A stretch of DNA of 64,000 nt from an uncultured Clostridia bacterium (GCA_944367565.1 CALVWR010000011.1:92-64091); one strand, 5' to 3'; shown: positions 1 to 22,045, numbered from the stretch's first letter. Program-made: numbers and translations. Notes: generated by a model from the sequence alone, not told the origin.

Positions 1-1010
1 CAAAGGAGATCTGTATGAACTACCACCATTTTACCATAGAAGAGCGCTGTTGTCTACGAGAATACTATGTTAAAGGAAAAAGTTATAGAGAAATTGCAAA
101 ATTACTTGGCAGGAACGTAAGTTCGATATCACGGGAACTGAGGCGGAATTGTACCTTTTACAGAGATATCCCGAGATATTATCCGTATACTGCGCAAAAG
201 AAAAGCAATCTGCGCAACAGTTACCGCCACCGAGGTATGTTTTGGGAAAGAAACGTATTGGACTACATAGATGAAAAATTATCTAAAACGTGGTCGCCCG
301 AACAAATCTCCAACACGCCGTGCGGGATGAAGATGCCGTCGTTCAAGACAATATACCGTTGGATAGACGAAAGATACTTGCGTTCCACCCTGAAAAACCT
401 ACGGAGAAAAGGGAAAACCCGTAAACGCATGGGCAACGGCGGAAGGTTCACGACGGGGAAAAGCATACGCAAACGGGATAAAAGCGTATACAGCCGCAAA
501 GAGTTCGGGCATTGGGAAGCGGACACTGTGGTATCGGGGCAAGGGAAAAGCAAAGCATGCTTTGCCACGCTTGCGGAAAGAAAAACGAGATATTATATCG
601 CAATCAAGATCCCGGACAGAAAGGGAGAAACGATGGCGAAAGCGATAATTGACGCGCTTTCCAAGTTTCCCGAAGGAGCGGTAAAGACGATTACCTGCGA
701 CAGAGGCAGCGAATTTGCCTGTTGGAGAGAGATAGAAAAGGCACTGAGTTGTGATATGTACTTCGCGGATCCGTATTGCGCATGGCAGAAAGGAACGAAT
801 GAAAACTTAAACGGACTGCTCAGGGAATTTTATCCAAAGGGAAGAAACCTTTCGAGAGTGAGTCCCGCAACATTAAAAAAGAACCTGGCGTTAATCAACG
901 CCAGGCCCAAGAAAGTTTTGCATTACCAAACTCCGCAAGATTTGTTTGAATTAAATCTCTCCTACTGTTGCACTTAACTTGACAATTCATCTTGCAACTG
1001 ATTTGCGGGA
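1..1010 (+). mobile_element. IS30-family insertion sequence; left terminus lies outside the window
   Basis: Contains the complete IS30-type transposase ORF. The sequence after the stop (cttgacaattcatcttgcaactgatttgc) resembles the upstream end of the decayed copy at ~19150-19190 in inverted orientation, which suggests a terminal inverted repeat. The right boundary is approximate. Confidence 0.75.
15..977 (+). CDS. IS30 family transposase
   Basis: 320 aa. N-terminal HTH (SYREIAKLLGRNVSSISRELRRN) and a DDE catalytic region (HWEADTV ... ITCDRGSEF ... WQKGTNENLNGLLREF), both typical of IS30 transposases. Confidence 0.92.
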   Translation: MNYHHFTIEERCCLREYYVKGKSYREIAKLLGRNVSSISRELRRNCTFYRDIPRYYPYTAQKKSNLRNSYRHRGMFWERNVLDYIDEKLSKTWSPEQISNTPCGMKMPSFKTIYRWIDERYLRSTLKNLRRKGKTRKRMGNGGRFTTGKSIRKRDKSVYSRKEFGHWEADTVVSGQGKSKACFATLAERKTRYYIAIKIPDRKGETMAKAIIDALSKFPEGAVKTITCDRGSEFACWREIEKALSCDMYFADPYCAWQKGTNENLNGLLREFYPKGRNLSRVSPATLKKNLALINARPKKVLHYQTPQDLFELNLSYCCT

Positions 1011-8696: not shown

Positions 8697-9608
8697 TCAG
8701 AATTTGATTTCCGCTTTCTCCGCATATTCGATGATCGCCGCAAGTCTGTCCAGATCGTCGCGGGTATAGTAATCGATGTAGATCCTGCCTTTGTTGTCGT
8801 TTCCGATGGCGTTGACTTTCGTGCCGAGCACGCGTTGCATCGTGATGACGAGTTCCTTCAGTTCCAGCGAAAGTTCCGCTTTTTTCTTTTTCTTTTCTTC
8901 CGGCGGATTAAAATAATTTTTGACTTGCTGTTCCGCTTCCCGTACCGAACATCCGTCCTTGACGAAACGGTTCGCCATTCTGACCTGTTCTTCCGCGGGA
9001 ACCGTGATGATGGCGCGCGCGTGTCCCGACGAGAGCGCGCCCGATTCGACGAGGCGGATGACTTCCGGCGACAGCTGCAAAAGCCGCAGCGTGTTGGTGA
9101 TCGCCGGACGGGATTTGCCGATTCTGTCGGCAAGTTCGTCCTGCGTCATGCCGTAATCCTCCATCAAAGAACGCATGGCGGTCGCTTCCTCGATGGGATT
9201 CAGATCCTCTCTTTGCAGGTTCTCGATCAGCGAGATCTCCTTGATCTGCCGTTCGTTGTAATTTTTGATGATGACGGGGACCTTTTCAATGCCCGCAAGT
9301 TTGCTTGCGCGGTACCGTCTCTCCCCCGCAATGATCATGTATCCTTTGGCGTCCTGATTGACGATCAGCGGCATGATCACGCCGTGATGACGGATGGATT
9401 GCGCGAGCTCGTCGAGCGCGTCGGGATCGAATGACTTCCGCGGCTGATCGGGATTGGGGTGGATCGATGAAAGTTCCACTTCCTTTACGCTTTCTTTTCC
9501 TTTTTCTTCCGTTTCCGGTTCGTCAAAAAGAAGACTCTTTCCGTAATCTTCTTCCGTTTCCGCAAACAACGCGGAAAGTCCTTTTCCCAGACCTCTGTTG
9601 TTTTTCAT
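8697..9608 (-). CDS. parB: Chromosome partitioning protein ParB/Spo0J
   Basis: MKNNRGLGKGLSALF opening, IIAGERRYRASKLAG (the GERRxR CTP/arginine box) and HTH GMTQDELADRIGKSRPAITNTLRLL. The tracked ORF (to 9836) carries a spurious Arg-rich N-terminal extension. The ATG at 9608 fits the canonical ParB N-terminus. Confidence 0.95.
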   Translation of the reverse strand: MKNNRGLGKGLSALFAETEEDYGKSLLFDEPETEEKGKESVKEVELSSIHPNPDQPRKSFDPDALDELAQSIRHHGVIMPLIVNQDAKGYMIIAGERRYRASKLAGIEKVPVIIKNYNERQIKEISLIENLQREDLNPIEEATAMRSLMEDYGMTQDELADRIGKSRPAITNTLRLLQLSPEVIRLVESGALSSGHARAIITVPAEEQVRMANRFVKDGCSVREAEQQVKNYFNPPEEKKKKKAELSLELKELVITMQRVLGTKVNAIGNDNKGRIYIDYYTRDDLDRLAAIIEYAEKAEIKF

Positions 9609-9613
9609 AAATA

Positions 9614-10390
9614 TTACCCCTGTTTTGATGCCGTTCTTGCAAGATATTCGTCGGTAAGTGCGTCGTATGCCCGTGCGCCTGCGCATTTCGGATCGTGCAG
9701 TAAGATCGGTACGCCGTGACTGGGCGCTTCCGAAAGACGGATGTTGCGCGGAATCACCGTGTCGAACATACGCTTGCCGAAGTATTTGCGTATTTCTGCC
9801 GCGATCTGTCGGGAAATGACCGCGCGACTGTCGCACATCGTCAGGACAACGCCCTCGATTTTGAGTTTGTCGTTGAGATGTTTCACCACCAGCTTGATGG
9901 TATTGATCAGCTGGCTTAATCCTTCCATCGCATAGTATTCGCTCTGAATGGGAATGATCACCGTATCTGCCGCGGATAATGCGTTGATGGTGAGAAGCCC
10001 CAGCGAGGGAGGACAGTCGATGGCGATGTAATCGTAAAAACCTTTGACCTCTCCCAACATTTTTTTAAGCACGCTTTCCCGATCTTTCATGTAAACAAGT
10101 TCGACTTCCGCGCCGGCAAGATCGATGTTTGACGGCAACAGATCGAGATTCGCAATGGACGTCTTGATTGCGAGACTCGGGATGGGAACCTCGTCGATCA
10201 GCGCGTTGTATACGGAGTTTTTTACTTCCGATTTTGCAAAACCGAGACCCGTGGTCGCGTTTCCCTGCGGATCCAGATCGACGAGCAGGACCTTTTTCCC
10301 CTTTACGGCGAGATATGCCGCCATATTGACACAGGTCGTCGTTTTTCCGACGCCCCCTTTCTGATTTGAAAATGCGATAATCTTACCCAT
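9614..10390 (-). CDS. parA: Chromosome partitioning ATPase ParA/Soj
   Basis: MGKIIAFSNQKGGVGKTTT is the deviant Walker A motif. It also has DLDPQGNAT and IDCPPSLG. The 258-aa gene lies 5 nt upstream of parB. Confidence 0.95.
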   Translation of the reverse strand: MGKIIAFSNQKGGVGKTTTCVNMAAYLAVKGKKVLLVDLDPQGNATTGLGFAKSEVKNSVYNALIDEVPIPSLAIKTSIANLDLLPSNIDLAGAEVELVYMKDRESVLKKMLGEVKGFYDYIAIDCPPSLGLLTINALSAADTVIIPIQSEYYAMEGLSQLINTIKLVVKHLNDKLKIEGVVLTMCDSRAVISRQIAAEIRKYFGKRMFDTVIPRNIRLSEAPSHGVPILLHDPKCAGARAYDALTDEYLARTASKQG

Positions 10391-10426: not shown

Positions 10427-12625
10427 CTATTTCCCGGCGCCGTCGTGTTTGTCGCCGTCCGACTTCGCTTCGTCCGTTTCCTTCCCGTCTTCCGCCGATT
10501 CTTTTTCCTTGTCCGGTTCGTCCACGATCACGTTCTTCCCGCCTCTTGCAAACGGATTTTCCTGTAATGTCTTTTCGTTTTCGTCCATGAACTTTTCAAT
10601 CTCTTCCAAAGATTTACCGTCCATCAGCATATCCACTTCTTCCGTAAAGATCGTCTCCCGTTCGACAAGCAAACGCGCCATATTGTCGAGAAGTTTTCGG
10701 TTTTCCGAAAGGATGGAACGCGCTTTTCCCAACGACTCCATCACAATCTTATTGACTTCTTCGTCGATGATCCCCGCCGTCTCTTCGCTGTAATTCACAT
10801 GGGATGCCATATCCCTTCCGATAAAGACTTCCTGGTCGCTGCCGTAGGAAATCGGACCTACGCGATCGCTCATGCCCCATTCGGTCACCATCAGCCGCGC
10901 CCGTTTCGTCACCGCTTTGATATCGCCCGACGCCCCCGCCGAGATGTCTTTGATCACCAGCTCTTCCGCAACTCTTCCGCCGAGCGTCATGACGATATCG
11001 TCAAGCAGCTTCGCCTTCGTAAGATGATTGTCGTCGTTGTCCGGCATGGTCATCGTATATCCTGCCGCCTGCCCTCTCGGAATGATGGAAACTTCATGTA
11101 CCGGATCGCAGTTCGGTAAAAGTTTTGCAAGGATCGCGTGTCCCGATTCGTGATACGCCGTGATGCGCTTATCCGTTTCCGTGATAAGCCTGCTCTTCTT
11201 CTGCGGCCCCAACAGCACTTTGTTGATGCCCTCGTATAAATCCTTGTTCGTGATCACTTTCCTGTTCGCCCGCGCCGCGAGAATCGCCGCTTCGTTCAGC
11301 AGATTTTCAAGATCCGCTCCCGAAAAACCGCTGGTCATCCGCGCTACCGTCTTGAAATTTACGTCCGGCGCCATCGGCTTGTTCCTGGCGTGTACCTTCA
11401 ATATCGCTTCCCGTCCTTTTACATCGGGCGTGTTGACGTAGATCTGTCTGTCAAATCTACCTGGACGCAACAATGCCGGATCGAGAATGTCCGCACGGTT
11501 GGTCGCCGCCATCACGATGATGCCTTCGTTGGTCTCGAATCCGTCCATCTGCACGAGCAGCTGGTTCAGCGTCTGTTCGCGTTCGTCGTGACCGCCGCCG
11601 AGACCCGTACCCCTCTGCCGACCTACCGCGTCAATCTCATCGATAAACACGATACAGGGCTGACTCTTCTTCGCCGCGTCAAATAAATCGCGCACCCGCG
11701 ACGCTCCTACGCCGACGAACATCTCCACGAAATCCGAACCGCTGATCGAGAAAAACGGCACGCCCGCTTCTCCCGCAACCGCCTTCGCAAACAGGGTTTT
11801 ACCCGTTCCCGGAGGCCCTACAAGCAGTACGCCCTTCGGAATCCGCGCGCCGAGTTCGGAAAACTTTTTCGGATTTTTCAGAAATTCCACCACTTCCGCA
11901 AGTTCGGCTTTTTCCTCATCCGCCCCGGCTACGTCGGTGAATCGAACCTTCAGATTGTGCAACTGCCGCGCGTTGGTCTTCGCAAAATTCATGGCGCTCT
12001 TCGTCCCGCCGCCCATCGACCGCGATATAAAGATGAATGCCACCACCATAAGCGCAATCATGATCACATACGGAATGATCGACGACCAGATCGAGCCTGC
12101 ATTGGGATCGGTTCCTTCATAAACGATTTCCGCTCCGTCTGCGGCGCTCTGATTGATGTGCCGCAAGGCGTCTTTATACAGCGTTACATCGTCCGAATTC
12201 ATCAGAATCGTCGAATACGTGCGCACAATATCGGCCGCGCCGCCGGACAGACGGTATGTTACGGCAATATAAATATTGTAATTGCTGAATTGTACTTCGT
12301 TGATCTTTGCCGAAGTAGCGTCAATCCGATCCAGTTGCGCTTTCAAGGTCTTATCGGATCTCAGAATTATCATAGCATCCGCCTTACCCGTCGTCGTCGT
12401 CACGACTTCCGTGATCGGATTGCCTGCGGAATCCTGTCCGATTACTTTTTCGGTCCGGACAATTCCGATAGCTTGCTCAAAAATGCTGTTATCGATTTTC
12501 GTTGAGCCGGCACATGAACTGGTAAACGAAAACACGGCGATTAACGCAACAATAACGGCCAATACGCCTATTAAAATGCCGGTGTTGGATTTTTTCAATG
12601 ATGTCCCTCCTCGGAAAGATCGCAA
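10427..12625 (-). CDS. ftsH: ATP-dependent zinc metalloprotease FtsH
   Basis: [23 protein letters not shown] (Walker A), [10 protein letters not shown] (Walker B), SRH region [18 protein letters not shown] and HESGHA zinc site. The predicted ectodomain between the two TM helices is ~145 aa, longer than I expect for FtsH. The C-terminus is an acidic tail. Confidence 0.97.
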
Positions 12626-12734
12626 AAAGCCGATCCTCCGCTTTTTTAATTTTAATTCGCTCTGAATCGAAGAATACGGATATTATTACCGCCCTACATA
12701 CGATTCATAATGTATTTTTTTACTTTTGATGCGA

Positions 12735-13563
12735 AATCCGAAGAATTCCGCCGTCATAATTTTGCCTGTGTGGTTTTGTCCGGCGCCCGTCAGATTTCCT
12801 GCAGAATCTCACATGCCGAAGATCCCATCCTCGGATCGGCACTCACCGTGCTTTAGTTTACATGATTTCGGCTGAAGTCTTATCTAAACATCGGCGCACG
12901 TTATGATTTTGCATATAGATTCGACTGAATTTTGTCTGTGTAACGGTGCTTGTTTTCATCCCGTCTACGAGGTTTGTTTCAGTTGAATTTTTCCCGCGCG
13001 ACGGTGCTTGTTTTGGTTTCGCCTACACGGTTTCGGTTGAAGTTTGTGCAATGTCGGCGCACGTTATGTTTTCGCGTAAATGGCTTTGTTCGGCTCCTGC
13101 CGAATTTTCTGCCGGAAATTTTGCCGGCACGGTTTCGTCCGGCGCCTGTCAGATTTCCTGCAAAATCTCACCTGCCGAAGATCCCACCCGCGCGGTTTCG
13201 TCCGGCGCCTGCCGAATTTTTTGCCGAAAATTTTGCCTGTATGGTTTTGTCCGGCGCCCGTCAGATTTCCTGCAGAATCTCACCTGCCGAAGATCCCATC
13301 CTCGGATCGGCACTCACCGTGCTTTAGTCTACATGATTTCGGTTGAAGTCTTATCTAAACATCGACGCACGTTCTGTTTTTGCATATAGATTCGACTGAA
13401 TTTGTCTGTGTAACGGTGCTTGTTTTCATCCCGTCTACGAGGTTTGTTTCAGTTGAATTTTTCCCGCGCGATGGTGCTTGTTTTCATCCCGTCTACGAGG
13501 TTTGTTTCAGTTGAATTTTTCCCGCGCGACGGTGCTTGTTTTGATTTCGCCTACACGGTTTTG
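12735..13563. repeat. Non-coding mosaic of nested direct repeats
   Basis: A ~276-bp segment starting at 12760 recurs at 13231 (period 471 bp) with scattered substitutions. A 58-bp unit (ggtgcttgttttcatcccgtctacgaggtttgtttcagttgaatttttcccgcgcgay) begins at 12945, 13415 and 13473, with partial copies at 13003 and 13531. A ~55-bp segment (gtccggcgccygtcagatttcctgcaraatctcac.tgccgaagatccca) occurs at ~12778, ~13138 and ~13249. Confidence 0.9.
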
Positions 13564-14011
13564 CTGAAAACTCGCTTAAGCGTCGGTGCTTATCTCAAAA
13601 TGTACGGAGTTCGCAATATACGTAAAAACGCAAATAAAATACTCGAAATATTGTATTTAAATCAATTGCGCTCCAAACTGTACATTAATTTATAATGCGC
13701 GCCGTTTCTTTCAAATTCAGGCGCTCCGTAATTGCGTAGTATTTGTCCTGAAGCCTAAAATGACCTCATTAAATGAAATTTAATTTAACGTTTTATAAAA
13801 ATTCCGTATCAAATTATATAAATATAATTATTATAACGCGAAATCTGCCATCGTACAGGAAATGATAAACAAGGTCGCCGATAGACCGGCGGACAGTGCA
13901 TCTTTTCAATTACATCGGTGCGCCGGATGCGAAAGACATTGCCAACACTATGGGCAAGCGATTGAAAGTCAAACTATTAACCGCATAAGCTGAATTTCGT
14001 TCTGTTCTACC

Positions 14012-14197
14012 CGTTTTGGCTTTAAAATCATCAGGGGCGCCGAGGATTGTGTAGCATTTGCTAAATCCTGTTAAAAAGCATTACGCATTATAAAACTTCA
14101 ATTTTTACAGGATAACTTTAAAATTTTTACTTTATCCTGTTTTAAATTTATACATCATTCTGTTGCGCGTTTTGGCTTTAAAATCATCAGGGGCGCC
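14012..14197. repeat. Two perfect 30-bp direct repeats bracketing ATCCTGT-type inverted repeats
   Basis: cgttttggctttaaaatcatcaggggcgcc occurs at 14012-14041 and 14168-14197, each preceded by ttctgtt. Between them lie aggatt(15 nt)aatcct and acaggataa(16 nt)ttatcctgt. Confidence 0.85.
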
Positions 14198-15241
14198 TAA
14201 ACTTACACAGAATGCGTCTTGCTTTCAGAAGTGCCGTAAACTGTATTGGCGCAGAAATTTGTTTAAGCGCAACTTTAAATTTTCTCTAAAACACAGAACG
14301 CTGCAATTATAATCAATAAATATTTATTATTGCTATTTATTATTTATAAATAAAATAAAAATTTAACTAAACAATAAAAATCACAATAAAAACTGGTACA
14401 ATCTTAATATATCTGATCCGATTTTATGAGCGGATAATACAATATATAAAATATAAAGTAACCCAACTATATAAAAAAAAGATTGAAATAGCATTGAAAG
14501 AGATAAGTTTTATAACATAATTGCCTGAAATCAAATAAAATAAAATGCGCTAAAATATTACTTAAAATCTATCTTCTCTGTGCGTTAAAATACCCGCTAA
14601 AACATTCTTTTTTAGTTTACGTAAGTAAAGCGAAAATCATACATTGCGACTTATAAATTGTATTAAAAATATATTAAAAACATTTTATCACAATTGCCGG
14701 CAAAAGACAATATATTTTTCAATAATTTTACAAAAAAAACACATCATGAGAAAATTGGCATACAAAACAAAACTGAAATTTCTAACAATATACTAAATGA
14801 TACGACATGATCCAAATTAAAATTAAAGTTAAAACAAAAGCGCGTTATTGCGTTTTTAGTCATAAAAAACGCGCTTGTTAATTAAAATTTTAAAATTTAT
14901 TATTTTAACAAAAATGTACTAAAAATAGCCGACTATTTTTAAGTCCGATCATAATGTCAGGTTGCTACTTATATATTTTTAAAATTTTCTTTATGGCAAA
15001 ACAATTCAGATCTAACCGCAATACATTAAAACGATAAACAACCCCTTTATTTCAAGTAAACTTAATTAAATTACGTAGCAAAATGTTATGCAAAATAAAA
15101 TGCCACAATGCGCAAATAATTAAATGTAATTTTTATTTAAAAACTATGGATATTTATAAAAATAAACAAGCTGTTTTCAACAATTGTATTGTATAAACAA
15201 TGTCAAAGTGATTATCGGCATTTTTTATTTTGCTTTCATAA

Positions 15242-15257
15242 TGTTTCACGTGAAACA
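15242..15257. promoter_or_regulatory. parS: parS site 1 (ParB-binding centromere-like palindrome)
   Basis: TGTTTCACGTGAAACA is a perfect 16-bp palindrome matching the Firmicutes parS consensus TGTTNCACGTGAAACA. The palindrome extends to 18 bp (ATGTTTCACGTGAAACAT, 15241-15258). Confidence 0.85.
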
Positions 15258-15269
15258 TTTATCAGGCGA

Positions 15270-15285
15270 TGTTTCACGTGAAACA
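15270..15285. promoter_or_regulatory. parS: parS site 2
   Basis: An identical 18-bp palindrome at 15269-15286, 28 bp centre-to-centre from site 1. Confidence 0.85.
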
Positions 15286-16429
15286 TCGCTCAAAACATAA
15301 TAGTCTGAGACAAAATACAATATATTTTATGCCGATAAAAATTTATGCCATTCTGTCTCAGCTCGTTAAAATGCAAATTTTTTATGGTTATTTTATTCAG
15401 AAATTTAAGACAATTTGACGGTAATTTTAACGTAAACAATATAATACTATGGTTTCGGACGTTCTGCAAAGTATGTTTTTATTTTAAGCTGTTGCTTATG
15501 CTTGCACATTAGAAATTTCAGCAAGCATATAAACTATAAATTAATCAAAAAAATGGCGTAATTTTTGCAAGAATAATAATGTTTTAATTGTAAGATAGTA
15601 TAATTATAATTTTTTCGGCAACAAAGCGAATGTAAATATAATTTTGCATAGTAATTTATCCTTTAAAAATTAAAATATAGTAATGTGCGCATTTGATTTA
15701 TACAACTTTATGTTTAAAATATGACTTAATATGCATAAAAATTGGCAGGAAAATGTTTTTTAGTAAATAAAATTAAAATTTTTTGGTTTTAGTGATAAAT
15801 TATTTATAAAATACTGAAAAACTTATAATTTGGCGGTGAGAAAATGCGTTTTAATATTTTATTAGTGATTAAATTTTATGCGCTTAAATAAAAATATTTA
15901 ATCATTTTATTTTTAATTAAAGTACTGATTTTAAGCGTAATTTCTTTATTGAAAATAGGGCAATTTTATACAAATGATCACTCATAATAATTTTAACGAT
16001 GAAAATACATTATAATTAAGGGTCTATTTTGCGTATTTGATAAGTGCAAAATTTTAATAAAATTGATTTATTTAGCGCATGTATTTATTATATTTTTGAG
16101 CCAAAAAACTTATCTGTGTATTTTTTCTTTAAAAATTAAACAGCTATTTTGCGTGCGTATTTACGGTTTCTTTATAGTGGATCGGTTAAATTTTGCGTAG
16201 CGCAAAAAACAATTTATTTTTTTGATTTAAATAAGTTTGGCGCAAATATATTATAATTTTTATGCATGTTTGTTTAAAATAAGCGCAAAGCATTATTAAA
16301 GGATTATTTTATTTATTAAGTAGAAGCAAAATTAAAGCGAATATTTATAAATTAAATTATAATATATCTATATTTATTTTTTTGTTCTTTTCGGTTGAAA
16401 TGTTATGGAACAAGTTCATCCGAAATATC

Positions 16430-16458
16430 TTGCTATTGCAAAGAAATTATGTTACAAT
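16430..16458 (+). promoter_or_regulatory. Candidate sigma-A type promoter for the 16507 gene
   Basis: TTGCTA (16430-16435), a 17-nt spacer, then TACAAT (16453-16458), ~50 nt upstream of the ATG. Confidence 0.4.
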
Positions 16459-16506
16459 AATCAAAAAGTACAGTGTATGCTATTATAGCGGGAGCGAGAT
16501 GTTTTA

Positions 16507-17246
16507 TGCGTAAAAGCAGCAAGGCGGCAATTATTACGATGATCGTTTTATTTATTTTGAACTTTGTCGTGATTGTGCCGTATATTGTTTTTCCGGCAGG
16601 GAAATTGCCTGCATATGAAATGTTTGAGGAGCTTTCTTCTGTACGGACATGGCTTGATGAAAACGGTGTTGATGTTCAGGATGTGGGGAAAGACAGTTAT
16701 CTCGGCGATACGGAGACGGTGGATTCCGTTAATGTTTCGTTCCTTTATGCAGGAGAATACTATCGGTTGTCGGCTCATATTTTTGAAACGAAAGAGGCGT
16801 TGCGGAATTATTATGCATCACGAACGGGATACGGAACGGATCTGGATCAAGGGGAATACTTTACCGCATATTATTTTTCCACTTCTTTCTGCGCATTTGA
16901 AGGAAACAGACTGATTGCGTTGTCGGGCGGGGATTATCTGGCGTTTTTGCAGGTTTTCGGAGATCTTTTCGGAAAAGAGGAGAATGCGACAAGTTCGGAA
17001 AGCGGACAGAGCGCGGCAAGTTCGGAAAGCTGTCGGAGTGCGATGGTTTCGGAAAGTGGGCAGGGCGCGGTAAGTTTGCAAAGTGTACAGAGCGCGATAG
17101 TTTCGGAAAGCAGGCAGGGCGCGGTAAGTTTCCAAAGTGTACAGAGCGCGATAGTTTCGGAAAGTAGGCAGAGCGCGGTAAGTTCGGAATGCGGACAGAG
17201 TGCGGTGCTGAAGATCGTGAAGGGGGCGCAAAATGTTTCAATTTAA
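16507..17246 (+). CDS. Hypothetical membrane-anchored protein with a C-terminal 9-aa tandem repeat region
   Basis: MRKSSKAAIITMIVLFILNFVVIVPYIVF is an N-terminal anchor. A soluble domain of unknown family follows, then eight nonapeptide repeats. G+C is lower than in the surrounding core genes. The tracked ORF starts at 16473. Confidence 0.6.
16992..17207 (+). repeat. 8 x 27-bp in-frame tandem repeat
   Basis: Units start at 16992, 17019, 17046, 17073, 17100, 17127, 17154 and 17181. They encode SSESGQSAA / SSESCRSAM / VSESGQGAV / SLQSVQSAI / VSESRQGAV / SFQSVQSAI / VSESRQSAV / SSECGQSAV. Confidence 0.9.
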
Positions 17247-17997: not shown

Positions 17998-18088
17998 AGA
18001 GAAAGCGTAAAGAGTGAAGGTGCGCGCAATGGAAATATAAAATTGTCGTGCGCTTAAAACCGCGTTCTGTTTTGTATAGCGTAAAAAA

Positions 18089-18244
18089 GAAATTGTCAAA
18101 TCAATTGCAACACCGCATAAGATCTTCTTGAAATAAATCTATCGGGGTTTTAAAATATAAAACCTGATGAAATGTCAAACCAAGTGCAACACCGGATAAG
18201 ATTTTCTTGAAATAAATCGATCGGAGTTTTGAAATATAAAACCT
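18089..18244. repeat. Two tandem ~78-bp repeats carrying IS30 terminal-repeat-like sequence
   Basis: Units at 18089-18165 and 18166-18244. Each contains tgtcaaa(t/c)caa(t/g)tgcaacaccg(c/g)ataag, similar to the right end of the intact IS30 (cttgacaattcatcttgcaactgatttgc, 978-1006). Confidence 0.7.
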
Positions 18245-18249
18245 TTTTA

Positions 18250-18281
18250 GACCCGGCGTTAATTAACGTCGGGTTTTTTTC
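18250..18281 (+). terminator. Hairpin plus T-run (intrinsic terminator-like)
   Basis: acccggcgtt aatt aacgtcgggt forms a stem with one mismatch and is followed by ttttttt. It abuts the truncated 3' end of the IS30 remnant. Confidence 0.55.
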
Positions 18282-19125
18282 AAAGTTGCGGGACTTATTC
18301 CGGACAAGATTCTGTCTTTATGACAGAACTCTATGAACAGACCGCTCATATTCGTTTGTACCTTTCTGCCACGCACAATACGGATCTGCAAAAAGATTTT
18401 GCGTTTCAAGCCGTTTTCTATTTCTATCTAACAAGCAAATTCGCTTCCACGGTTTAAGGCGATGGTTTTTACCGTTATTTAGGGGAGTTTGCTCAACATG
18501 GAGCTCATCGCATTTGCCATCGTTTCACCTGTTCTGTCCGCAATTTTCATCGCTGTATAATACCTTATTTTTCTTTCCGCAAGCGTGGCAAAGCATGCTT
18601 TGCTTTTCCCTTTGCGCCGAAAAGCAATGTTTCCAAAACCGAAAGATCGACGCCGTCAAAGAAGATAAATGCGTGACGGAAAAAGAAAAAAGCGGTGCAC
18701 GCGCCCGGCTAAACCGGCTCCTTGAAAGAATTGCAAAAATATCGAGAAAATAAATTTGTGCTATAAACAAGAATCGAATGACAAAAAATTATCGGAGCAG
18801 AATTCATAAACTTAAGTGTAATGAATTTACAGAAGATTTTATGTTTGCGAAACCGATACATACACCATGGTTACGGATATATTACAAGGCTCCTTTGCAC
18901 AAAAGGATATTGAAATGATGAATTATAAAACAAAAAATAAATTTTTGTGCCGTATACGGATAATATCTCGGTATATCCCTGAAAAACGTACAGTTCCGTC
19001 ACAATTCTCGATACCGAACTCACATTTCTACCGAGAAGTCTTGCAATTTCCCGATAACTTTTTCTTTTTATATAGTATTCTTGTAGCCGACAGGATTCTT
19101 CCATGGTAAAATGATGATAGTTCAT
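18282..19125 (-). pseudogene. Decayed, 3'-truncated IS30-family transposase gene
   Basis: The 84-aa N-terminal fragment MNYHHFTMEESCRLQEYYIKRKSYREIARLLGRNVSSVSR is ~80% identical to the start of the intact copy. The reverse complement of 18571-18615 is identical to 541-585 over 45 nt. Further similarity runs down to ~18282, interrupted by frameshifts and stops. Confidence 0.85.
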
Positions 19126-19694
19126 ACATATCTCCTTGGCAAAATTTGACTTGGCAACTCTATTTTACCACAGATTTGTAGGAACTTTTTTTCTTTTATG
19201 TTGCGTTTATATAGTATAATTTATTAAATAAAACCCGCGTTTTTCCGTGGAAGGAAAAACGCGGGCTACTCGTTATTCGATACAGAGTCCATATTCTAAG
19301 TATGCATCATAATAAATGAAAGAAAAACATCCGACGAGACTTTTTATATAAACTTTTTCGGGATGAAAGCGTTGAATGGGGATTCTTTCCATAACGAAAG
19401 TTGTCCGTTTTACTTATGCGGACGGCTTTTTAAAATCGGGGAAAATGTCACGGATTTGCTTTTTTGCCGAAAAGCACGCGAATACCGTTGCGAGATTTTT
19501 CCGCTTATGATAAAATAGAGAGAGCGGGGAATGAAAAACGGTCGGATAATCAAACGTAAGAAGGGGGATACGGCAAGGGCGCCGCGATCGCGTCAAGGTT
19601 GACGGCATGGCGTCAAAAACGGAACAAAAAGAATGAGGACGATTTTATAAGAAAGCGGTGACCGACGGACGGAAGCGCTCTGACGGGAGGAACT

Positions 19695-21776: not shown

Positions 21777-21815
21777 GCGGCGCCGTCCTGAACGACGGCG
21801 CCGCAACGTTTTTTT
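21777..21815 (+). terminator. Intrinsic terminator after the GNAT gene
   Basis: gcggcgccgtc ctgaac gacggcgccgc forms an 11-bp perfect stem, followed by aacgttttttt. Confidence 0.8.
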
Positions 21816-22045
21816 CAAAAACCGCGCCGCTTCGGAAGGATTGCGGCATCCGGATAAGGTGTCCCCGGCGGCGGGGCAACGCGTTTTCGGCGGCAAAGGT
21901 TTTTCAATTGCCTGACGGCGCCGCAACGTTTTTTCAAAAACCGCGCCGCTTCGGAAGGATTGCGGCATCCGGATAAGGTGTCCCCGGCGGCGGGGCGACG
22001 CGTTTTCGGCGGCAAAGGTTTTTCAATTGCTTGACGGCGCCGCGG
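21794..22045 (+). repeat. Tandem 120/119-bp intergenic repeat (2 full units plus a 13-bp partial third)
   Basis: Units start at 21794, 21914 and 22033 and are nearly identical. Each unit contains self-complementary segments: aaaaacc/ggttttt, cgccg/cggcg, ggat(tgcggc)atcc and ccccg(gcgg)cgggg. Confidence 0.9.

Follow-up and report, generated by a model that had tools for sequence, protein, structure and literature searches.

A parS pair within a long AT-rich, gene-free interval beside ftsH-parA-parB in uncultured Christensenellales: a probable ParB loading region

Introduction

ParABS centromeres are well known, and a chromosomal parS is usually regarded as a 16-bp sequence standing on its own; the best-known parS of Bacillus subtilis lies within the spo0J gene. 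In plasmid partition operons with type Ib-like autoregulation, the centromere located 5' of parAB doubles as an operator. On chromosomes, ParB spreading from parS has been reported to affect adjacent promoters in Pseudomonas aeruginosa (PMC5521831) and Streptococcus pneumoniae (PMC4488948). Here, we analyzed a 64,000-nucleotide stretch of DNA from an uncultured Clostridia bacterium (GCA_944367565.1 CALVWR010000011.1:92-64091, referred to below as the window), in which two parS sites lie within a gene-free, AT-rich gap of ~3.9 kb (12626-16505) between the divergent genes ftsH on the minus strand and a gene starting at 16506 on the plus strand. Relatives of its FtsH place the organism among uncultured gut Christensenellales, an abundant order that sets parS in a long conserved tract. 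A limited literature search returned no description of such a long AT-rich gene-free parS setting, of the ~80-bp element linked to parS, or of the phased GCGC sites that are described below. No new mechanism is demonstrated here; what is unusual, and conserved, is the anatomy.

We consider it probable, with moderate confidence, that the interval represents an AT-rich intergenic region found in most Christensenellales, here in an enlarged and rearranged form specific to the lineage, that it serves as the main ParB loading site and as regulatory DNA of ftsH-parA-parB, and that parS sits there in a divergent spacer made of long leaders.

Results and discussion

A parS pair conserved beside ftsH-parA-parB

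Both sites, parS-1 (15242-15257) and parS-2 (15270-15285), match TGTTTCACGTGAAACA perfectly and fit the 16-bp inverted-repeat consensus TGTTNCACGTGNAACA. They are 28 bp apart (start to start), and the chance expectation for parS is 0.28 per window at up to three mismatches. The genes of the partition system lie nearby, at a distance of 2.2 to 3.9 kb leftward from the gap edge at 12625: parB (8697-9608, minus strand; 303 amino acids) has Pfam ParB_N and HTH_ParB matches and a GERRYRA cytidine triphosphate (CTP)-binding motif within the translated sequence IIAGERRYRA, and parA (9614-10390, minus strand) encodes a Walker-type ParA/Soj ATPase with Pfam AAA_31/ParA matches. The first gene of this cluster is ftsH (10427-12625, minus strand; Pfam Peptidase_M41 and AAA), which forms the left border of the gap.

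The arrangement is widespread in the order. In ~60 of 80 loci, an AT-rich stretch directly 5' of ftsH-parA-parB carries one to four parS sites, usually a pair 28 to 45 bp apart, and in most loci the gap free of open reading frames (ORFs) measures 0.2 to 4 kb at 17 to 31% G+C, with flanks at 37 to 57%. The original prediction, made from the sequence alone, had listed a centromere-like ParB loading platform among the candidate roles of the interval; a perfect parS pair kept across the order, with parA and a GERRYRA-bearing parB adjacent, speaks for that candidate. The wider neighborhood is less stable, in that yyaC/cvpA, dnaA-gidA, recF, and dnaN are found on differing sides in different relatives' loci, and in many relatives dnaA-gidA, recF, or dnaN lies within 10 kb of the homologous locus.

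Within the higher-G+C clade to which the window belongs, the gap of locus L004 is at least 3.2 kb long, and those of L003 and L006 measure 3.7 to 4.0 kb. From parS, the two bordering genes are 1.2 and 2.6 kb away in the window; the corresponding values are 1.3 and 2.6 kb for L003 and 1.2 and 2.8 kb for L006. In L006, the two genes to the right of the gap also have homologues (37% and 43% identity), which are arranged divergently as in the window. Against L003, L004, and L006, only parS and the ~80-bp element can still be aligned.

Coding content, composition, and assembly of the gap

The right border of the gap is a gene at 16506-17246 (plus strand) that has no Pfam match, a hydrophobic segment at its N terminus, and an internal 54-bp tandem repeat. 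A gene starting at 16507 had been predicted; the gene is indeed there, but it starts at the ATG at 16506, and the frame from 16507 holds 11 stop codons. No ORF of 60 amino acids or more was found over 13696-16472 (the longest has 59), in agreement with the earlier claim of ~3.9 kb without a credible gene. Recoding TGA, TAG, or TAA revealed no hidden ORFs in the gap, with the longest stop-free runs at or below shuffle medians, and a tRNA/tmRNA search gave no match.

The mean G+C content of the window is ~52%; it is 36 to 40% over 13600-14250 and 19 to 27% over ~14250-16500. The strongly deviant block is ~2.25 kb long, so that the predicted extreme AT richness holds, whereas the predicted length of 2.9 kb, at ~20 to 25% G+C, does not.

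The interval is found in other assemblies. Contigs from ENA ERZ1673725 (L001) and Logan SRR12395652 (L002) cross ftsH, the repeat mosaic next to it, the AT-rich block, and the 16506 gene, and hence both junctions. As these two carry the same differences from the window, they were counted as one independent strain; they are 98.2% identical to the window over the block and 99.5% identical over the flanks. A third assembly, ERZ28613947 (L083), equals the window except for one base. The contigs of L001 and L002 end at ~17025-17048 because of the 54-bp tandem repeat inside the 16506 gene (16994-17184; 88% identity), which encodes a Ser/Glu/Gly-rich stretch.

A conserved ~80-bp element linked to parS

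Next to the parS pair lies an ~80-bp element (15304-15385, plus strand) that consists of an imperfect long palindrome (GAGACAGAATGGC, ~28 nucleotides, GCCATTCTGTCTC) followed by a strongly conserved AGAGCGTTAAAATGACAATTTTT-like tail. It was found in 55 loci, in one copy per locus and always close to parS, and it stays with parS even where it is uncoupled from both ftsH and yyaC. Between the two strains, parS and the element together show one change in 160 bp. Relative to ftsH, the orientation of the element is reversed in the window, L003, and L004. Folded as single-stranded DNA, the parS pair plus element is far more stable than shuffles (z = -6.4), and a sliding-window fold scan of the gap was significant only at the parS/element center and at one hairpin near 14106.

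By eye, the element gave no consistent fit across the alignment as a promoter of the sigma-H, sigma-54, sigma-D, extracytoplasmic function, or sporulation sigma type, nor as a CIRCE or CtsR operator or a dif site.

GCGC sites and promoter-like blocks

The two parS sites, the perfect 30-bp direct repeats, and the GC islands noted in the original prediction are all present, and the islands exceed chance. GCGC occurs 11 times versus 0.4 (order 0) or 6.3 (order 1) expected, and G/C runs of at least four bases occur 25 times versus ~5 expected. In relatives' gaps, WGCGCW reaches 10.5 times its expectation, whereas the factor is 1.7 in the remaining non-coding DNA of these loci, and the spacing from one GCGC to the next peaks sharply at 19 to 20 bp. 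These dyads stand 60 to 100 bp 5' of the -10 box of the first promoter-like block of ftsH, P1 (for example, at -487 in L073, -343 in L068, and -244 in L082 relative to ftsH), and their GCGC-core sites often read TAGCGCTA or GGCGCAA. The dyads look like an operator for some regulator. The window has an example at 14249-14270 (plus strand), with two sites 18 bp apart (GGCGCAG...AGCGCAA), and further GCGCAA sites are found in its right arm at 16200, 16240, and 16283.

In an alignment of 30 typical gaps, parS (two copies), the element, TTGCGCTA, and, ahead of ftsH, two promoter-like blocks were recovered; the usual order in relatives is parS, element, GCGC dyad, P1, P2, and ftsH. In the window, a block matching the relatives' ftsH P1 (15576-15605, plus strand; -10 box TAGTATAAT at 15596-15604) lies 3' of the element, so that the module faces the 16506 gene, and ftsH is instead preceded by the strain-variable mosaic. 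The right arm also has a TG-extended promoter-like site at 16430-16458. A scan for sigma-70 promoters and terminators gave results no better than shuffles.

AT-rich arms on either side of parS

The AT-rich DNA forms two arms around the parS/element center. The left arm (14251-15240, read on the minus strand) has 22 to 27% G+C, and its minus strand is richer in G than C (0.15) and in T than A (0.13); the right arm (15401-16505, read on the plus strand) has 19 to 26% G+C and a plus-strand GC skew of +0.23. Divergence between the two strains is 1.5% in the left arm and 2.4% in the right, compared with 1.12% at four-fold sites, 0.9% in short intergenic regions, and 0.5% over all coding DNA. Since the arms diverge at or above the four-fold rate, their primary sequence is unconstrained. 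The left and right arms resembled each other, in direct or inverted orientation, no more than shuffled sequences did.

On the plus strand of the window, the non-coding GC skew thus flips at parS, being -0.15 in the left arm and +0.23 in the right arm. In a pool of 35 relatives, the corresponding values are -0.16 upstream of parS (p = 1e-19) and +0.10 from parS to ftsH (p = 1e-18), with T exceeding A on the sense side. Transcription leaves an excess of G over C and of T over A on the non-template strand. As the arm skew flips at parS and the replication-type skew does not (see below), the simplest cause is outward transcription, which the flip therefore suggests. A further possible cause is avoidance of Rho sites, with selection acting against C-rich Rho-loading sites in long untranslated RNA. 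The earlier proposal of a long non-coding transcript receives partial support: the skew flip at parS agrees with it, whereas Rfam matches, covariation, and widespread structure were not found. Rfam 15 gave no match at the gathering score over the whole window, and for the gap, at E values up to 5, it gave only a chance match to a microRNA model at 14059-14119.

Repeat mosaic and other features of the window

Adjacent to ftsH, a repeat mosaic (12723-13561; 45 to 50% G+C) is built from an ~471-bp unit and a 58-bp unit whose copy numbers vary between strains. L001 and L002 lack 12793-13214 and 13415-13472, that is, one 471-bp and one 58-bp unit fewer; no further copies of the mosaic were found elsewhere in the window or in relatives. 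The mosaic is followed by a transition segment (13601-14250) at 36 to 40% G+C, which holds the perfect 30-bp direct repeats (14012-14041 and 14168-14197) and a 9-bp perfect inverted repeat (ACAGGATAA at 14107-14115 and TTATCCTGT at 14132-14140). An 18-nucleotide motif, TTTCGGYTGAARTSTTAT, occurs in both mosaic units (12866-12883 and 13337-13354) and again just 5' of the 16506 gene (16389-16406); these copies may mark the ends of a rearranged segment or may be due to chance.

To the right of the gap, the genes at 16506 and 17233 have no Pfam match, a low G+C content, and a very high GC skew (+0.32). A second gene-poor stretch follows at 18000-19690 (32 to 44% G+C), in which no ORF exceeds 84 amino acids; for the ORF at 18871-19125 (minus strand), the annotation of L083 gives an 84-amino-acid product with a weak HTH_38 match. 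Between an acetyltransferase gene and a CitMHS transporter gene, ~120 bp are duplicated in tandem (21794-22043), in arms of 131 bp with 97.7% identity.

At the left end of the window, 15-977 (plus strand) encodes a full-length IS30-family transposase of 320 amino acids with rve and helix-turn-helix domains; many copies of it occur in metagenomes, with identities of up to 96%. L001 departs from the window at 992 and has a rhamnosidase gene there instead of IS30, which makes the insertion strain specific. Rhamnosidase was also considered for 15-977 itself and was rejected when a protein search gave the IS30 transposase; a protein search with the rhamnosidase fragment returned nothing.

A proposed organization of the interval

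On the basis of these features, we hypothesize that ParB-CTP clamps would load at parS and slide outwards over the adjoining DNA, and that the partition complex so built would be acted on by ParA and probably SMC. Both arms would be untranslated and transcribed outwards from the parS/element center, the left arm toward ftsH and the right arm from the P1-like promoter toward the 16506 gene. They would act as spacers or leaders that are maintained in length and free in sequence, keeping the genes ~1.2 and 2.6 kb from the ParB nucleation point, and would carry the promoters and operators of the flanking genes. As parS lies beside these promoters, ParB may modulate them, as reported elsewhere (PMC5521831, PMC4488948). 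The extra length seen in this clade is due to added AT-rich DNA and to the strain-variable tandem-repeat mosaic beside ftsH, and the parS-element-P1 module has become inverted relative to ftsH.

Several observations weigh against this proposal, in which ParB loading, leader transcription, and the spacer function are all deduced from sequence. Because the arms diverge as fast as synonymous sites or faster, much the greater part of this DNA could be functionless. Between the two strains, the GCGC islands show no visible excess of conservation over the DNA around them (~3 substitutions in 34 sites), and the phasing of A tracts is marginal: AA/TT periodicity at 10.25 bp has z = 5.6 in the right arm, where the 95% shuffle maximum is 5.0, and it is not significant over the whole block. 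For the element, RNAalifold gave no consensus structure, and covariation in a hairpin model was no higher than in shuffles on either strand. The conservation of length rests on three lineages. In L005, whose FtsH is 79% identical and whose G+C content is 56%, ordinary genes reach to within 400 bp of ftsH, and no parS was found in the 5.3 kb upstream of ftsH (L005 1-5315); in the lineage of this close relative, the parS block has been lost or has moved, and the long gap is therefore dispensable at that position. Finally, none of dnaA-gidA, recF, and dnaN was found from -8.9 kb to +64 kb in this species, so that proximity to the origin is seen only in relatives.

Alternative explanations

The main rival to a ParB loading and regulatory region holds that all but parS is functionless, the rest being an AT-biased neutral scar, left at an origin-near hotspot of rearrangement, that tandem duplications have padded and no deletion has yet removed. 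The fast divergence of the arms (1.5 to 2.4% versus 1.12% at four-fold sites) is what such a scar would show, and so are the alignability of only parS and the element with L003, L004, and L006, the differing mosaic copy number, the inverted module, the changes of side of yyaC/cvpA, dnaA-gidA, and dnaN among relatives, the missing gap of L005, and the absence both of ORFs under any stop recoding and of structured RNA outside the center. The ~4-kb layout, however, with arms of 1.2 to 1.3 and 2.6 to 2.8 kb, persists in the window, L003, and L006 despite full sequence turnover. Bacterial genomes have a deletion bias, given which such persistence is unexpected. Nor does a scar account for a WGCGCW enrichment that is specific to the gaps, for GCGC sites phased at 19 to 20 bp, or for a non-coding strand skew that flips at parS, and we regard this explanation as unlikely. 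Another reading places the functional core in a small RNA gene, namely, the ~80-nucleotide element on the strand opposite to the alignment, with the AT-rich DNA as its promoter and terminator context or as more non-coding RNA. In its favor, the element is kept as a single copy in 55 loci and remains with parS when uncoupled from ftsH and yyaC; the reverse strand pairs better in the hairpin (76.5% of cells versus 70.2% on the forward strand), has G-U in place of an A/C mismatch at one hairpin position in 25 of 52 sequences, folds at a lower mean energy (-16.6 versus -13.9 kcal/mol), and has a conserved TAAAAT-like box upstream and a T-run downstream. The mean folding z-score is only -1.3, however, consensus structure, covariation above shuffles, and Rfam matches for the gap were not found, as described above, and what is most conserved is the primary sequence of one arm and the tail, as expected of a protein-binding site or promoter. 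We therefore consider a small RNA gene improbable as the core of the interval. As for a horizontally acquired AT-rich island, decayed genes silenced by a nucleoid-associated protein, or an assembly chimera, the G+C content ~30 points below that of the genome, the IS30 transposase at the left end of the window, and the second low-G+C gene-poor stretch at 18.0 to 19.7 kb might point in that direction. Yet 11.6 kb separate the transposase from the left edge of the gap at 12626, synteny of the gap extends across the order (~60 of 80 loci), with the same neighbors in L006, and the assemblies of an independent strain cross both junctions. Nothing resembling the interval was found among PLSDB plasmids or INPHARED phages, and no contaminant match was found. 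Searches (tblastn) with the neighboring proteins of L003, L005, and L006 found nothing in 12626-16505, alternative codes uncovered no hidden ORFs, and the closest gap-keeping relatives have no intact genes at colinear positions, L003 and L006 sharing the gene-free gap. The silencer-bound foreign remnant of the original prediction is not upheld, and this family of explanations is largely refuted; we find it hardly credible.

An unconventional replication or unwinding region had also been proposed, and several observations favor the notion that the block is or contains the chromosomal replication origin (oriC) or its unwinding element. The tract is extremely AT rich, genes diverge from it, the total GC skew switches sign at ~15300 in the window (as the numbers given in the original prediction had implied), parS and parAB are typically origin proximal, and many relatives have dnaA-gidA or dnaN no more than 10 kb from the homologous locus. 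The dnaA loci were located with a B. subtilis DnaA sequence as the probe, and the matches were checked by Pfam Bac_DnaA_C on L077. In Christensenellales, the dnaA-gidA (mnmG) operon diverges from recF across only ~100 bp, so that oriC does not lie in that space, and DnaA-box-like 9-mers are ~2.2-fold enriched in the relatives' parS gaps (27 versus 12.5 expected), where a minor DnaA-related role may exist. The block itself, however, has no DnaA box at up to one mismatch (0.9 expected), and the alignment of relatives' gaps has no conserved block resembling one. Canonical boxes are found elsewhere in relatives: their pooled dnaN-upstream regions hold 10 (TTATCCACA-like) versus 1.35 expected, and in L013 a cluster of TTATCCACA, TTGTCCACA, and TTTTCCACA followed by an AT-rich stretch lies 5' of a separately located dnaN, at a site separate from the parS gap. 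This organization of dnaA and dnaN was seen at L010 18300-20831, L033 389-2927, L077 2-2454, and L013 19150-20716, and the order and orientation of the dnaA and dnaN blocks relative to ftsH-parAB differ between genomes. The replication component of the skew at third codon positions (GC3) has the same sign on both sides of the gap (~+0.03 left and ~+0.13 right in the window). Mean GC3 skews (plus strand G rich) are +0.075 for the minus-strand genes on the left; on the right, they are +0.09 for plus-strand and +0.17 for minus-strand genes, and this picture did not change when 9 kb was added to the left. For 40 relatives, the component has values of +0.059 (upstream of the gap) and +0.077 (downstream), with a confidence interval for their difference that contains 0. 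The sign change in total GC skew follows the switch in coding strand, and the GC3 skew does not flip. Firmicutes have a purine-rich leading strand, and the AT skew of the arms is opposite to that pattern. Given the missing DnaA boxes, the constant GC3 sign, and the separate dnaN-linked cluster in relatives, we consider an origin within the block very improbable. The data suggest that oriC in Christensenellales is dnaN linked and that dnaA has moved into the dnaA-gidA operon. A flip in total GC skew beside parS, even in AT-rich DNA, is insufficient to call an origin.

Implications and comparison with known systems

If the context of parS matters, centromere neighborhoods may be selected for architecture rather than sequence, and the same context would point to further DNA-binding partners. 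A tentative and rather unlikely extension of the ParB loading reading is that Christensenellales possess a composite centromere, in which parS, the linked ~80-bp element, GCGC arrays phased at two helical turns, and a length-maintained AT-rich zone work as a unit; if so, one or more factors bound to the element and the GCGC sites would help to organize ParB/SMC loading or the positioning of the origin region and would control ftsH-parAB. In practice, the locus may offer a dependable landmark for the origin-proximal region in metagenome-assembled genomes of Christensenellales.

The Firmicute oriC of the incC type, with DnaA boxes and an unwinding element 5' of dnaN, is likewise AT rich, intergenic, and near parAB; unlike it, the block in the window lacks DnaA boxes, adjacency to dnaA or dnaN, and a GC3 flip. 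With autoregulated plasmid partition operons, most relatives share the order of parS, promoter blocks, and an operon ending in parA-parB, and by analogy parS-bound ParB could regulate its own operon in those relatives. The locus differs from such operons in being chromosomal, in having ftsH as the first gene, and in the position of parS, which lies 0.5 to 2.8 kb from the start codon and does not overlap the promoter; in the clade of the window, moreover, the parS-element-P1 module is inverted away from ftsH. The closest resemblance is to the chromosomal ParABS systems of B. subtilis (Spo0J/parS), S. pneumoniae, and P. aeruginosa, which have the same 16-bp consensus palindrome, a cognate ParB with a GERRxRA motif, an adjacent ParA, and an origin-proximal setting of the kind seen in relatives of the window. 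Unlike the B. subtilis parS within spo0J, however, the Christensenellales parS pair lies in the middle of a gene-free AT-rich tract (0.6 to 4 kb, 18 to 30% G+C) 5' of ftsH-parA-parB, which it shares with phased GCGC sites and a conserved palindromic element of 80 bp, neither of them described in the literature covered by our limited search.

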